From contig CAVYHV010000030.1 in assembly GCA_963768425.1 (NCBI GenBank), positions 1-64,000 on the forward strand: 64,000 bases of DNA, read 5' to 3'. Source of the stretch: Candidatus Bathyarchaeota archaeon (GTDB taxonomy: Archaea > Thermoproteota > Bathyarchaeia > Bathyarchaeales > Bathycorpusculaceae). Positions 29,564 through 48,463 of this stretch are shown here, piece after piece. Both the position numbers and the translations under genes were made by a program. The first letter of the stretch is position 1. Every line of letters starts with the position of its first letter. The notes beneath the pieces are model-generated. The model was not told where the DNA came from, did no database searches, and worked only from the letters and a program-made list of their open reading frames with translations.

Positions 29564-29646
29564 GCAAACGGAAGACTAATAGTCTGAGCAGATTTATTCG
29601 TTTTTTTGTTGGTCTTCATGATCAGGAAAATCCTAACTTAGAGTTA

Positions 29647-29755
29647 TGGTGCTCCGGCCGGGATTTGGACCCGGGTCCGCGACTCGAGAGGCCGCTATAC
29701 TTAGTCCCTTAGTAAGAAGTCTTAGTAAGGTTTGACCGGACTATACTACCGGAGC
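29647..29755 (-). tRNA. tRNA-Glu(CTC) with a 31-nt D-loop intron (29701-29731) and encoded CCA
   Basis: GCTCCGG/CCGGAGC acceptor, anticodon arm GCGGC-CTCTCGA-GTCGC, T arm CCGGG-TCCAAAT-CCCGG, ACCA end; removing the intron gives 78 nt. Confidence 0.93.
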
Positions 29756-29894
29756 ATTCGCAGAAGGGTTGTTCTTTAAGAAATAAATATGTTTTTATGG
29801 GTTCTCCCAAGGTTGAGCAAATAACGCGTAGGTCGTACCAAATTAATCAAAAGCGGCCAAGGATTTTAGTTGGGCTGAAAAATCGTGCGGTAAT

Positions 29895-30230
29895 CTATTC
29901 TTCTTCATCCACATTTAGAAAACGCTTTATGGTTACCATCATCTCAGCCAACCCTTTCGCAGTAATTGGGGGCTGGTAGGGAATACGGAGAACTTCCCAG
30001 CCTTGTGCTTCCAGCAACTCGTCGATTTCGCTGTCGCGCTGTTGCTGCTTGTCGCTTGAATGGACAGGTATGCCGTCTATGTAGACAATTTTCCGTTTGT
30101 TTATCCAGCAGAAATCCGGTATGGTCGATTTGAGAATAATTGGTTTCTGGGTGACCATTCCCGATGTTAATCCAGCTTTGCTTAATTCGTTGAATAATGC
30201 CATCTCTGCTTGGCTGACTTTAGGATGCAT
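29895..30230 (-). CDS. DUF559 / Vsr-like endonuclease-domain protein
   Basis: SQAEMALF..PDF..IVYIDG..H..RDSEIDELLEAQGWEVLRI; likely start ATG 30230. Confidence 0.8.
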   Translation of the reverse strand: MHPKVSQAEMALFNELSKAGLTSGMVTQKPIILKSTIPDFCWINKRKIVYIDGIPVHSSDKQQQRDSEIDELLEAQGWEVLRIPYQPPITAKGLAEMMVTIKRFLNVDEEE

Positions 30231-30324
30231 GTGTTTTTTGTAGCTCAAGTTGTTTCCCGAAAGAGTAGCATTATATGTTACCCTTAATAAATCATATACC
30301 GTAAAACGGTTAGTCTCATTTGCC

Positions 30325-30474
30325 GCGAAACCAAAAGTAGGCTTAGCGGACCGCGCCTGCCAATCCGAGACGCGAATCAGAAGAAGCACCTGTTTGTAAG
30401 GGTTTTACAATCCGCGCTTTGTTTGACCGCGACCCGCCAAGCATGGGTGTACCTCTTGGATGGCTATTTCTCGC
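30325..30474 (-). ncRNA. Candidate structured ncRNA (~150 nt), family unknown
   Basis: TTTATA 24 nt upstream, paired termini, six or more nested helices whose G-U pairs mostly favour the minus strand. Confidence 0.55.
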
Positions 30475-30611
30475 AAGATAACCAATCCCTTGTGCGGTAT
30501 AAATGGAATTGTGGTTGTGTAATTGCAACAACAGGCATGCATGCTTCGCGAAGCCACGTTTAATTTCGTGGAGTTGCAAATGATGGAACGTAGCGATTGT
30601 TTGTTTCATCA

Positions 30612-30830
30612 TCAATTTAAAATTGGTGGTGCTTCTTCGAAAACTGCTGGTAAAAGGGTTACATTGTCTTTTTTTGGTGCTGTTCGGTTTTTTGGTTTTG
30701 GTCTTTTCTTGTCGCCTATCCAGTACTGGCTCCAGCCCATGAAGAAAATAAAGATTAATGCTGGAAGAAGCAGAAGTGCGATGTTGCTGCGTTTACGCCT
30801 GCGGTTCTTTATTGCCAAGTTTGCACACAT
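30612..30830 (-). CDS. Small single-TM protein
   Basis: Basic N-terminus, hydrophobic helix, GWSQYWIG, basic tail. Confidence 0.6.
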   Translation of the reverse strand: MCANLAIKNRRRKRSNIALLLLPALIFIFFMGWSQYWIGDKKRPKPKNRTAPKKDNVTLLPAVFEEAPPILN

Positions 30831-31017: not shown

Positions 31018-33467
31018 TTATACTTCCTCCAGCTTGTGTTGGTTTAGTCTTCGGTTTTTTTCTTTACATTCGAAGGGTGGATACTCTTTTAGTTTGTCAG
31101 CCATTTCGGTGAGTTGTTTGTTGACAAGATAGTTGATTGTTCCTTCTTCGAAGGTTCCGTCTGCCCGTAATTCGCCGGCTTTTGTTCCCGTGAGAAACTC
31201 TATTCCTTCATCGATTGTTTTTACTGAGTAAATGTTGAATTTGCCTGCTTTCACCGCTTCAACGAACTTCTTCTTTGAGCATCAGGTTCTGCACGTTGCT
31301 TTCCGGTATCATGACGCCTTGTTGCCCCGTGAGTCCTTGAAGTTTGCAGACTTCGAAGAAGCCTTCGATTTTTTCGTTTACTCCGCCGATGGCTTGGACT
31401 TCTCCTTTCTGGTTAACTGAGCCCGTGACGGCTATGTTCTGCTTTATTGGTAGCCCAGAGAGCGCTGAGAGGATCGAGTAGAGTTCGGTGCTTGATGCGC
31501 TGTCGCCTTCGACGCCTTCGTAGTTCTGCTCAAAAACCAGTCTTGCGGAGAGGCTTAAAGGTTTGTCTCGGATGTATTTATCGTTTAGGTAGCCGCTTAG
31601 GATCAAGACGCCTTTGGTGTGTATTGGTCCGCCCATCTTGGCTTCTCTTTCAATGTCAATTACTCCTTCTCTGCCCAAGCCGATGCTTGCCGTTACCCGC
31701 GAAGGGTTTCCGAATGCGAAGTCGCCCATACCCATAACTGATAAGCCGTTAACTTGCCCCACCTTTTCTTGAACCGTGTCGATAAGGAAGAATCCGCGTT
31801 TTATCATTTCCTGGATTTTTTCTTGGATGAGTTTTGAGCGGTAAACTTTTTCTTCTATCGCTTTCTTTATGTGCTCTCCAGTTATGAAGTCGGAGTTATC
31901 TTGTGTAGCGTAATAGTTTGCTTCGCGGATTACGTCGGCGACGTAGGCAAATTGCGTTGACAGTTTGTACTGGTCCTCTGCAATTCTTGAGCTGAACTCA
32001 ACAAGTTTTGCGATGCCTGTCCCGTCAAGGTGCTTGAGGTTTTCTTTTTCGCAAAGTGCGCATACCCAAGCGGCGTACTGCATCACTTTGCTCTTCTGTT
32101 CTATCCATAACGGTGTCGAATTCTGCTTTGATTTTGAAGAGCTCCCTAAAGTCAGGGTCTAACTCGAACATCATTTGGTAGAGGTAGGGGCTTCCAATCA
32201 GGATCACTTTGGCTGTTAATGGAATCGGTTGTGGTTTGAGGGTTTTGACGCTGAGGAATCCGTAGCGTTCTTCAGGTTCCGCTATGGTCATGTTTCCGTC
32301 TCTTAGGTCTCTTTTGAGGCCGTCGTAGGAGAACGGGTTTTGTAGCAACTCTTCAACTGGGACGATTAGGTATCCGCCGTTGGCTTTGTGGATTGAACCC
32401 GCACGAATCATGCTGAAGTCGGTGGTTAATGCTCCGAACTGAGCTTCTTTCTCGGTTTTGCCAAGAAGGTTGGGGTACGTTGGGTTTGTTTCCATAACCA
32501 CAGGGGCGCCTTTGGTTTCGGAGTTGTCGATGACAACGTTTACCTCGTATTTCTTGTAGGGGTCTTCACTCATCCAAGGCATCTGGAACGGAAACTGCTC
32601 CTGCTGCTCGCCTCCTTGGCTTCTTCTGATGAACTGCTGAAGGTTATCCAGCATGTCATTCTCCACAGCTTTAAGATACTCTGTCACCTCCGCGGAATCA
32701 CCATATTTCTCCCTGAGTCTTTCCACAAGATTGCCGATGGCGTAAAGTGCAACTTCCTTGTTTAGCTTCTTTAAGGCATCATGAATCTGTCTTTCCATAT
32801 CGATGAGTTGACGCATCGTGTTCCTGAATTCTGTCTCCAGCGTTTCCCTTTTCTCTTGAAGTTTATCCTTCGTTTTCTGGGGCAACGCCAACATTTCTTC
32901 TTCGCTGAGAGGTTTGCCGTCTAAAACTGGAATAAGTAGCAGGCCGATGGGTGTAGTTTGGATGACGAAGCCTTCGCGTTGAGCTTTTACATTTAGTTCT
33001 TCAATCAGCTGTTTTCTCTTTTCTTCTAAGCCCCGGATGGTGGCTTCCCTTCTTGCAGCGTAATCTTCACTTTCGAAAGCTTTTGGGAGCGCATTTTTTA
33101 CGTTTTCAATAAGATTCTTCATGTCATCTCGAAATTCTTTGCCTTTTCCCGCCGAAAGCTGTATGGCTTTTGGTTCGTATTGATTCCCGAAATTGTTAAC
33201 GTAGCACCAGTCAGGGGGGACAGGCTGAGTTTTAGCTTGGGCTTCAACGAAGCTTTTAACTGTTGTTTTTCTTCCTGTCCCAGGGTAACCTGCCACGTAC
33301 ATGTTGAATCCGTGGTTTTTTATTCCTAAGCCGAATTTTAAGGCGCGAACGGCTCTTTCTTGCCCGATGATCTCATCAAGGGGTGATAGTTCTTTTGTTG
33401 ATTCACATTGCATAAGGTCAGGGGGACATGTGTTTCTGAGTTTTTCCATTGGCAACTTGTTTACCAT
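31018..33467 (-). CDS. LonC-type soluble Lon protease (AAA_32-like plus S16 protease domain), frameshifts near 32088 and 31262
   Basis: IIGQERA, GYPGTGRKT, PPDWCYVNNF, GSIHKANGGYL, EGDSASS (catalytic Ser), GGVNEKIEGF (Lys); no TM insertion. Confidence 0.88.
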
Positions 33468-48014: not shown

Positions 48015-48463
48015 AAAACATGCAAACCACGAAAACTCCAGTTGTCCTTGTTAACGCTGAAGGATTGATAGTTGGCAGATTAGGTAGCAAAGTCGCTAAG
48101 TTACTCCTCAATGGGGAAGAAGTAATAATCCTTAACGCTGAAAAAGCCGTGTTCTCTGGAAAAAAGAAAAGCAAAGTTGCCGAAGCCAAACAGTTTCTTG
48201 AGGTAGGTGCACCTGAACGCGGTCCTTTTCATTATCGTAGGCCCGATAAGTACCTGCGCAAGACCCTGCGAGGAATGCTTCCCTACAAGCAGCCTAAAGG
48301 CAAAACCGCGTATAAACGCCTCAAAGTCTTCATGGGTGTACCTATGGAGCTTAAAGGAAAAGAAATGATCACGTTCACAGAAGCCTCATCTGCCACTTTA
48401 AAAGGGCCACATTTCACCCTTATGGAGTTGGCGAAAGAGATAGGCTGGAGCAAAGGTGAATAG
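48011..48463 (+). CDS. rpl13: 50S ribosomal protein uL13
   Basis: GRLGSKVAK, GPFHYRRP, RGMLPYK. Confidence 0.96.
   Translation: MKNMQTTKTPVVLVNAEGLIVGRLGSKVAKLLLNGEEVIILNAEKAVFSGKKKSKVAEAKQFLEVGAPERGPFHYRRPDKYLRKTLRGMLPYKQPKGKTAYKRLKVFMGVPMELKGKEMITFTEASSATLKGPHFTLMELAKEIGWSKGE

Follow-up and report, generated by a model that had tools for sequence, protein, structure and literature searches.

A predicted structured non-coding RNA gene of Bathyarchaeia and its lineage-restricted family

The minus strand of positions 30474-30333 in the stretch of DNA analysed here (positions 1 to 64,000 of contig CAVYHV010000030.1, from a Bathyarchaeia genome; hereafter, the window, 64,000 nucleotides (nt) long) is, as far as sequence comparison can tell, a real and independently promoted gene for a structured non-coding RNA (ncRNA) of about 140 nt. 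This RNA is the founding member of a new lineage-restricted family which, so far, is known from a single group of archaea, uncultured inhabitants of soil and peat. Covariation among relatives points to a fold made up of: (i) about 32 unpaired 5' bases; (ii) one irregular hairpin of about 100 nt (helices P1, PJ and P2, and an apical loop); and (iii) a tail with sequence CUACUUUU. Regarding its function, there is an even chance that the gene is a stand-alone structured small RNA (sRNA) gene acting as a trans-acting riboregulator, its scaffold being held by an Sm-like protein; among the readings weighed, this is the best supported, and the mechanism set out below is a proposed one.

A first-pass annotation of the window had described an unrecognised structured ncRNA on this strand with a TATA box of its own, a description now borne out: the promoter is conserved, base pairs covary, the G-U pairs are specific to one strand, and no Rfam family matches. 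In soils, peat and sediments, Bathyarchaeia are an abundant group of as yet uncultured archaea, and the RNA family provides a handle on their post-transcriptional regulation; a covariance model of the family is ready for the annotation of their genomes. Full-text literature searches, one of them loosely worded, so that the statement is a weak one, returned no paper on an ncRNA from Bathyarchaeia other than the universal ones.

Promoter and limits of the RNA gene

Positions 30300-30510 were used as blastn query against 24 other genomes of the same genus and 16 genomes from other families of the order. One strong match each was obtained in 18 of the 24 genus genomes (72-96% identity), and in the 16 genomes from other families the best E value was no better than 0.8. 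The matches span query positions 1-182, i.e., the promoter plus the RNA to about 30329, and then stop.

In a 19-sequence MAFFT alignment that was not fitted to the fold (hereafter, A1), the TATA box and an upstream promoter element are conserved, and the spacer of 22 nt that leads to the RNA is variable. Both the TTTATA at 30503-30498 and the GCGAGA start at 30474, as read in the first-pass annotation, were found in place; transcription would start at the G at 30474. The upstream promoter element recurs 5' of divergent copies and paralogues of the RNA, in some of which it constitutes the right half of a GTGACTG...CAGTCAC palindrome, and it is probably a factor-binding site. At the other end of the gene, sequence conservation stops a few bases beyond the tail CUACUUUU, whose UACUUUU recurs in paralogues; the conserved end of the RNA reads GCCUACUUUU in A1, and it is at this tail that the RNA probably ends.

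Secondary structure and covariation

Taken alone, the sequence does not fold better than chance (minimum free energy -53.9 vs. -47.8 ± 4.3 kcal/mol for shuffled sequences, z -1.42; 18 of 200 shuffles were as good) and, in consequence, the case for the RNA rests on cross-genome comparison. RNAalifold returns a long-range helix of GCUUGGCGGGUC with GAUCCGCCAAGC, with G-C to A-U exchanges. To this helix, the following were added from the alignment: (i) a two-pair extension, to give P1; (ii) the short helix PJ; (iii) helix P2 (CAAGGCGCG/CGCGUCUUG, with many variants across the alignment); and (iv) a small apical hairpin, P3.

The resulting 33 pairs correspond to 627 cells of A1, 91.7% of which are paired, vs. 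20.3-49.2% when the 3' partners are slid. Double changes occur in 14 pairs, vs. 6.8 ± 1.9 after shuffling, and none of 500 shuffles reaches 14. In a cross-genus alignment of 21 sequences they occur in 22 of the 33 pairs, vs. 11.1 ± 2.1 (0 of 500 shuffles), counts that lean towards structure because that alignment was fitted to the model. As for the individual helices, 97.4% of the P1 cells pair in A1, with double changes in five of its 14 pairs; helix 2, with PJ counted in, has double changes in eight of 16 pairs in A1 and 12 of 16 in the cross-genus alignment. PJ itself reads GUUAA/UUAAC in relatives and GUCAA/UUGGC here, a U-A to C-G double change specific to this genome. Furthermore, among the 627 cells there are 75 G-U and only 11 A-C combinations, and so the pairing works for the minus-strand transcript only; the strand bias of wobble pairs noticed in the first pass thus holds on the revised structure.

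The fold originally proposed was a different one, a set of nested helices that RNAalifold does not return. When scored on A1 in the same manner, 72.2% of its cells pair and double changes are not in excess, with 11 pairs vs. 9.6 ± 1.5 and 123 of 500 shuffles as good. Its closing helix GCGAGA/TTTCGC is paired in 61.9% of cells, the TTTCGC strand occurring in this genome alone (relatives have GGTTAC). Four further helices have the following values: GCCATC/GATTGGC (63.0%), AAGCGC/GTGCTT (65.7%), TTGTAA/TTACAA (51.6%) and AGGC/GCCT (52.0%). The remaining two survive in part. CCAAG/CTTGG is pairable in 94.7% of cells, but it shows no covariation and competes with the covarying P1; the long arm CGGGUC.../...GUCUCG (columns 42-56 with 111-124) is paired in 87.7% of cells within the genus but, by eye (locus L029), it cannot be formed in the second genus, and it likewise competes with P1 and P2. 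Changes in P1 are compensated on the 3' strand of P1 itself. The CCAAG/CUUGG hairpin and the long arm may be alternative conformers.

Conservation is unevenly distributed along the RNA. The 5' region is nearly invariant in the genus (mean column identity 0.91, vs. 0.66 in the middle of the RNA) and differs between genera and paralogues except for an AGC(C)AUC core. Within the variable middle, UUUUGRU is the best-conserved element, and C/U-rich loops followed by an A/U-rich run precede the P2 3' strand in all paralogues inspected. A pseudoknot between AAGAGG, at the 5' end, and the C/U-rich apical loop is possible by eye in several members of the genus and is not conserved in other genera. The coordinates of all these elements, and of those between the RNA and the adjoining DUF559 gene, are gathered in Table 1.

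Table 1. Features of the RNA gene and of the adjoining DUF559 gene, with positions in the window.
Feature	Positions	Strand	Remarks
Upstream promoter element	30509..30517	-	CAACCACAA in this genome, CAGTCACAA in most relatives and paralogues; conserved in A1; putative factor-binding site
TATA box TTTATA	30498..30503	-	23 nt before the first conserved RNA base; TTTATA in 17 of 19 aligned sequences
5' single-stranded region, about 32 nt	30443..30474	-	Contains AGCCAUC and an AAGAGGU stretch; left unpaired by RNAalifold
P1, 5' strand GCUUGGCGGGUCGC	30429..30442	-	Partner 30341-30354; sequence conserved across genera
PJ, 5' strand	30423..30427	-	GUCAA here, GUUAA in most relatives; partner 30359-30363
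P2, 5' strand	30411..30421	-	Partner 30366-30376
Apical region	30377..30410	-	Small variable hairpin P3, C/U-rich unpaired stretch, U-run and GAU just before the P2 3' strand
P2, 3' strand	30366..30376	-	Covariation counts in A1 and the cross-genus alignment
PJ, 3' strand	30359..30363	-	Covariation counts in A1
P1, 3' strand	30341..30354	-	RNAalifold; covariation counts in A1 and the cross-genus alignment
3' tail CUACUUUU	30333..30340	-	Column identity 0.88; likely termination site
Hairpin ACCGUUUUACGGU	30298..30310	-	Between the RNA and the DUF559 promoter; sequence not conserved, most relatives have a T-run there
TATA-like element ATTTATTAAGG	30282..30292	-	Putative own promoter of the DUF559 gene
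DUF559 gene (Vsr-like endonuclease fold)	29895..30248	-	117 codons, TTG start at 30248; Pfam PF04480

Distribution of the RNA family

A sample of 151 genomes from 70 genera of one family was searched with two models, R1 and the broader R2. The RNA was found in eight of the 151 genomes with R1 and in ten with R2, belonging to four of the 70 genera, with one to four copies per genome when divergent copies and paralogues are included (R2). In an order-level sample, 13 of the 35 other genomes from this same family carry members of the RNA family, and the 115 genomes from eleven other families carry none; the filters of this search were strict, so that weak members may have been missed. One genome (G173) carries a tandem pair of copies. 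In the genome studied here, a weak paralogue candidate is found on another contig (C9:59271-59366; 21.5 bits, E 0.14) which, by eye, keeps P1 and P2; no paralogue was found inside the window.

The copies have the following in common: (i) P1 (YUUGGCGGRUC/GRUCCGCCAAR) or a compensated variant thereof, e.g., GUUUGACGAAGC/GCUUCGUCAAAC; (ii) a GUUAAC-like PJ, P2, and a C/U-rich apical loop; (iii) an A/U-rich run that ends in U4-7 next to the P2 3' strand; (iv) often, UACUUUU after P1; and (v) a promoter whose TATA box is preceded, at a distance of about 6 nt, by CAGTCACA(A/T), which in some copies is part of the palindrome mentioned above. The unpaired 5' ends are unrelated between paralogue types, except for the AGC(C)AUC core common to two of them. 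The neighbourhoods of the paralogues are varied and include genes for Trm1, KARI, an NTPase, Toprim/ParB-like proteins, CysRS and a histidine kinase. Searching for the promoter motif by itself added little: the window holds seven matches vs. 7.25 expected, none of them informative, and a loose genome-wide search by regular expression gave too many matches to be usable. Carriage by viruses was also considered and rejected: the scaffold pattern matched 47 stretches of IMG/VR, none of which is a family member.

One paralogue type has a fixed setting. In four loci of the genus (L117, L153, L168 and L169), it always lies between an opposite-strand gene for a protein of about 265 aa, with a weak ParB_N match in one locus, and a downstream gene for a Toprim-domain protein. 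This locus may be the replication region of a plasmid or an integrated element.

Comparison with known RNA classes

The search with cmscan that the first-pass annotation had recommended gave, with Rfam 15, no match at gathering score in the whole window; when E values of up to 10 were admitted for positions 29600-30700, three matches appeared, none inside 30325-30474. No snoRNA model matches inside the RNA, and a weak match to SNORD2 (E 5) falls in the DUF559 gene. The main housekeeping RNAs lie elsewhere in the genome, i.e., 5S rRNA and the signal recognition particle RNA on contig C6 and the RNase P RNA on contig C15, all above cut-off. A tRNA or tRNA-like RNA was discarded too: there is no match to the Rfam tRNA clan in the RNA, and ARAGORN returns no tRNA gene in the window, a program that is insensitive here because it also missed the adjoining intron-bearing tRNA-Glu.

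Archaeal guide sRNAs resemble the RNA described here in being archaeal, promoter-driven and 60-150 nt long, and in having a hairpin with a large internal loop. Archaeal H/ACA sRNAs carry an ACA (ANA) box immediately after the hairpin, some 14-16 nt away from the pocket, together with a kink-turn (K-turn) or K-loop in the upper stem. In A1, read by eye, P2 is followed by GGRUUAA and P1 by CUACUUUU, no ACA comes after the hairpin, the large loop lies about 30 bp away from the 3' tail, and neither tandem G-A pairs nor a K-turn (tandem G-A by a 3-nt bulge) were found. C/D box sRNAs have a C box (RUGAUGA) and a D box (CUGA) near their ends; the C box is found in none of the 19 sequences, and CUGA occurs in this genome only, its relatives having UUGA.

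In Y RNAs, which are part of the Ro ribonucleoprotein, the 5' and 3' ends pair into the stem to which Ro binds, and a TROVE-domain protein is encoded in the genome as well. Here, on the contrary, some 32 nt at the 5' end are unpaired, and the 91%-complete genome has no match to PF05731 (TROVE).

Proposed mode of action

The reading of this RNA as a trans-acting riboregulator draws on its stand-alone promoter, its U-run end, a constant body with U-runs and variable unpaired 5' ends, as well as on the existence of paralogues under a common promoter signature, their heterogeneous neighbourhoods, and the loss of the RNA in some lineages. According to the proposed mechanism: (i) the RNA would be transcribed from its own archaeal promoter and end at a short U-run; (ii) the constant hairpin and the U-runs would hold a common protein, probably an archaeal Sm-like protein; and (iii) the unpaired 5' end and/or the apical loop, which resembles an anti-Shine-Dalgarno (anti-SD) sequence, would contact other RNAs.

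Sm sites are single-stranded A-U(4-6)-G/A runs flanked by helices. An Sm-like protein is the obvious candidate because the RNA has, between its helices, an internal run resembling such a site: UUUUGRU stands before the P2 3' strand in 18 of the 19 genus sequences, and A-rich and U4-7 runs occupy the same place in paralogues, a likeness of motif only. The resemblance of the C/U-rich loops to an anti-SD sequence derives from the 3' end of the 16S rRNA of this organism, which reads ...CACCUCCU.

Among known systems, the RNA is most like the trans-acting sRNAs of bacteria and archaea that depend on Hfq or Sm proteins, which are modular, with a seed region and a protein-binding U-rich scaffold. Like them, it is encoded by a stand-alone gene with a promoter of its own, ends in a U-run, is unpaired in its 5' region, carries U-runs both inside and at the end of a structured body, has paralogues that differ at the 5' end, and is confined to a narrow lineage. 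It differs from them in that its body is a single conserved hairpin of about 100 nt, the typical terminator module being much smaller, and in that the roughly 32 nt of the 5' region hardly vary within the genus; no target was found for the RNA, and the Sm-like partner is a putative one. The RNA family is, in any case, a concrete candidate for asking whether the Sm-like proteins of archaea employ dedicated sRNAs in the manner of bacterial Hfq. Another partial parallel is offered by the staphylococcal-type sRNAs with UCCC motifs (RsaE/RoxS), whose C-rich loops pair with Shine-Dalgarno sequences. The unpaired C/U-rich apical sequence is similar to them in its likeness to the anti-SD end of the 16S rRNA; unlike them, the RNA is archaeal, its loop sequence is not conserved in detail and, by a crude count, GAGG occurs within 20 nt upstream of only eight of the 48 long open reading frames (ORFs) of the window.

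Regarding expression, metatranscriptome contigs from at least two studies cover the body of the RNA: in one of them (X1) positions 30345-30461 and in the other (X2, on a relative's contig) 30329-30549 and beyond. In one run, the summed depth is higher over the RNA than over the DUF559 gene, which is covered by other contigs. The interval 30269-30319, between the RNA and the DUF559 gene, is covered by no contig in any of four runs; uncovered parts and contig ends are not evidence of transcript ends.

The contigs are compatible with expression of the RNA and do not prove it; this evidence is weak, since contigs show neither strand nor ends and the libraries may contain DNA, and one X2 contig (record 8) extends beyond both ends of 30329-30549, which makes read-through or DNA carry-over possible. 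Several observations weigh against a trans-acting riboregulator. The search for targets of the 5' end gave nothing above background. An ungapped scan of the 91%-complete genome, G-U pairs being allowed, reached a best score of 37 (a perfect match scores 83) within a smooth distribution, and blastn-short found exact matches of 13-14 nt at best (E 0.19 to 0.73), which is chance level; a 13-nt match in the window, at 48331-48343, was discarded, as it lies inside the coding sequence of uL13 and not at its start codon. The nearly invariant 5' stretch of 32 nt exceeds the needs of a seed region, and its near-invariance may point to contacts with a protein or to tertiary structure. The genome studied here has the weakest U-run, a degenerate one (CUUCUUCUGAU). 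Finally, the RNA is dispensable, because some members of the genus lack a detectable RNA or keep remnants only: six of the 24 genus genomes gave no blastn match, five of which were searched again with the model (four without a convincing match, and one with a weak paralogue only), and two loci (L096 and L114) show apparent remnants of the RNA 3' end at the expected place. As for the ribosome, duplex energies against the 16S operon region show nothing distinctive, the best one (-28.5 kcal/mol) being about 1.4 kb upstream of the 16S gene.

Alternative explanations

The RNA might work together with the adjacent DUF559 nuclease, whether as its guide, as a scaffold, as an inhibitor or in the manner of an antitoxin, the two genes forming a module, which is unlikely on the evidence that follows. 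This idea was already put forward in the first-pass annotation, together with that of an independent sRNA, and the module is weakly supported, the proposed co-occurrence of RNA and gene holding only in part. When DUF559 orthologues were scanned with one genome per species (best 80 of 153 relatives), the RNA was found upstream and co-oriented in 64 of the 80 loci, mostly ending about 75 nt before the TTG or ATG start. The other 16 gave no convincing RNA even with filters off; one of them (L100) has just 73 nt of upstream sequence and cannot be judged, and several have a divergent methyltransferase-like gene in the place of the RNA. The best argument for a link comes from the second genus, where the pair recurs in two of three DUF559-bearing genomes with a protein 65% identical and both flanks different. 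In the family sample, all ten RNA-bearing genomes have a DUF559 gene, vs. 33 of 151 genomes overall (ten of the 70 genera), which is not an independent test because those ten genomes are related.

Against the module stands the fact that the RNA adjoins the gene in only six of those 33 genomes: four from the genus (this one, G013, G017 and G171) and two from the second genus (G061 and G123). In the other genomes, 24 have no adjoining RNA and three had no locus to examine (27 loci were scanned, three known positives being left out of the scan), so that 24 of the 30 genomes examined lack the arrangement. A third genus has both RNA and gene, but on different contigs, its RNA copies lying beside genes for Trm1, KARI, an NTPase or a polyprenyl synthetase; no RNA is detectable in three genus genomes that keep the gene (G006, G024 and G188), and another genome (G010) has a paralogue RNA without the gene. 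No paralogue inspected has a DUF559 neighbour. Besides, the DUF559 protein is far more conserved than the RNA, and its gene has a promoter-like element of its own, which can be seen in roughly half of the 19 relatives (for the others, the 240-nt extract is too short to include it) and is also present 5' of DUF559 orthologues without RNA. Antisense control of the DUF559 mRNA start was likewise rejected: the 5' end of the RNA gives -12.9 vs. -12.7 ± 3.1 when shuffled, and energies are within about 1.5 standard deviations of shuffles in four genomes. The independent sRNA fits better than the module, and the DUF559 protein is, from its sequence, a neighbour with a predicted Vsr-like endonuclease fold and no shown part in the function of the RNA. 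If it were true that the two work together, this would be the first function for the widespread DUF559 domain.

A variable 5' end on a constant scaffold is, admittedly, a guide-like architecture which speaks for a nuclease partner. IscB omega-RNAs and the single-guide-like RNAs of Cas9 have a variable 5' segment and a constant scaffold, and this copy adjoins a gene for a protein with a nuclease fold, but the likeness concerns layout only. The copies are single syntenic chromosomal loci, and no IscB, TnpB or Cas gene was detected by Pfam beside this copy or 19 other loci of the family; the neighbour is a 117-aa DUF559 protein which mostly occurs without the RNA, and no guide-like complementarity to any target was found. 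On these grounds, an IscB, TnpB or Cas guide RNA was rejected. It is a long shot that the family consists of programmable RNAs, in which a scaffold-bound, dedicated Bathyarchaeial protein would be guided to nucleic-acid targets by interchangeable 5' segments, through short or discontinuous pairing, i.e., a new archaeal RNA-guided system; just as speculatively, the DUF559 nuclease would be one possible candidate for such a protein, and the members would be co-regulated via the shared palindromic promoter element.

It is still more doubtful that the RNA acts in cis, as a leader of the DUF559 mRNA (riboswitch or attenuator), in which the CCAAG/CUUGG hairpin and P1 would compete to control read-through at the U-run. 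The RNA is co-oriented with, and near, the gene in two genera; the CCAAG of the 5' end repeats the P1 3'-strand sequence and can pair, to the extent given above, with the CUUGG of the P1 5' strand, a pairing also possible by eye in two other genera; and a short U-run follows P1. Nevertheless, a conserved TATA-like element lies between RNA and gene; a G-to-A change in P1 is compensated on the P1 3' strand and not in CCAAG; the third-genus copies and the paralogues are not upstream of DUF559, family members being convergent with, or far from, any downstream gene; no Rfam riboswitch matches; and, as weak evidence, no contig of the four metatranscriptome runs bridges 30269-30319.

Lastly, that there is no RNA gene at all, the conservation being due to a DNA-level palindrome (a recombination site, or something like a miniature inverted-repeat transposable element) or to overlapping coding sequence, is scarcely credible and already disfavoured: the core is indeed a long imperfect inverted repeat with several copies per genome, and the ParB-like and Toprim genes beside one paralogue type may mark a mobile element, but pairing works on one strand only (75 G-U vs. 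11 A-C cells), the TATA box is conserved at a fixed spacing, the copies keep their synteny from one species to another instead of being dispersed and almost identical, none of the 47 viral-contig pattern matches is a family member, and a small ORF from the internal AUG was rejected, since ten of 19 relatives have ACG or AAG instead and indels are not in threes and break the frame.

Neighbouring genes and minor observations

The gene order in the genus is Lon-like protease, small membrane protein (12 of 19), RNA and DUF559 gene (19 of 19). The co-oriented Vsr-like nuclease gene of the first-pass annotation is a DUF559 gene, as confirmed by PF04480 (E 5.6e-8; 33.1 bits vs. a cut-off of 20.6; profile positions 17-88 of 109), but with 117 codons instead of the 111 then counted. 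Its orthologues align over their full length, 13 of 17 relatives have the same TTG start, and the second-genus orthologues also match PF04480. The hairpin ACCGT-TTT-ACGGT reported upstream of it is present at 30310-30298, and is all that a scan for bacterial promoters and terminators recovers.

Downstream, the tRNA-Glu of the first-pass annotation can be read by eye as a tRNA-Glu(CUC)-like sequence on the minus strand (29755-29647), whose CCA is encoded and whose D-loop contains an insert of about 33 nt, a non-canonical position for an intron; on the other hand, as said above, ARAGORN does not find it. Rfam misses it too at gathering score, its 3' half alone giving weak tRNA-like matches. This intron-bearing tRNA and the TATA box both indicate an archaeal genome. 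Upstream, the Lon-like protease (31259-33467, minus strand; AAA_32, LonC_helical, LonB_AAA-LID and Lon_C) is divided into two ORFs, 32025-33467 and 31259-32086, which overlap by 62 nt. The division may be genuine, or it may result from a frameshift or from an error in the assembly.

The Rfam archaeal large subunit rRNA model finds no 23S rRNA in the 91%-complete assembly, whose 16S rRNA is at C14:255365-256855; the 23S rRNA may be unassembled or interrupted. In the loose search for the promoter motif, near-identical promoter-like stretches, ATGAAC.AATCACAA...TTTATAT, were seen on contigs C4 (254 and 9915), C8 (194771) and C28 (46686 and 53077) of this genome. These stretches precede paralogous ORFs beginning with ATGTTTGG, which may be a gene family with a common promoter.

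Two contigs with RNA and DUF559 gene (L049 and L053; 78-79% protein identity) come from bins titled Limnocylindrales and Acidoferrum, and they are probably mis-binned Bathyarchaeia contigs. Finally, in the genome with the tandem pair of RNA copies (contig C11; L032:2-535, minus strand), a single ORF encodes an Mrr-like domain with a restriction-endonuclease fold and, after it, the C-terminal domain of the RNA polymerase subunit Rpb5/RpoH; this ORF may encode an archaeal full-length Rpb5-like protein.

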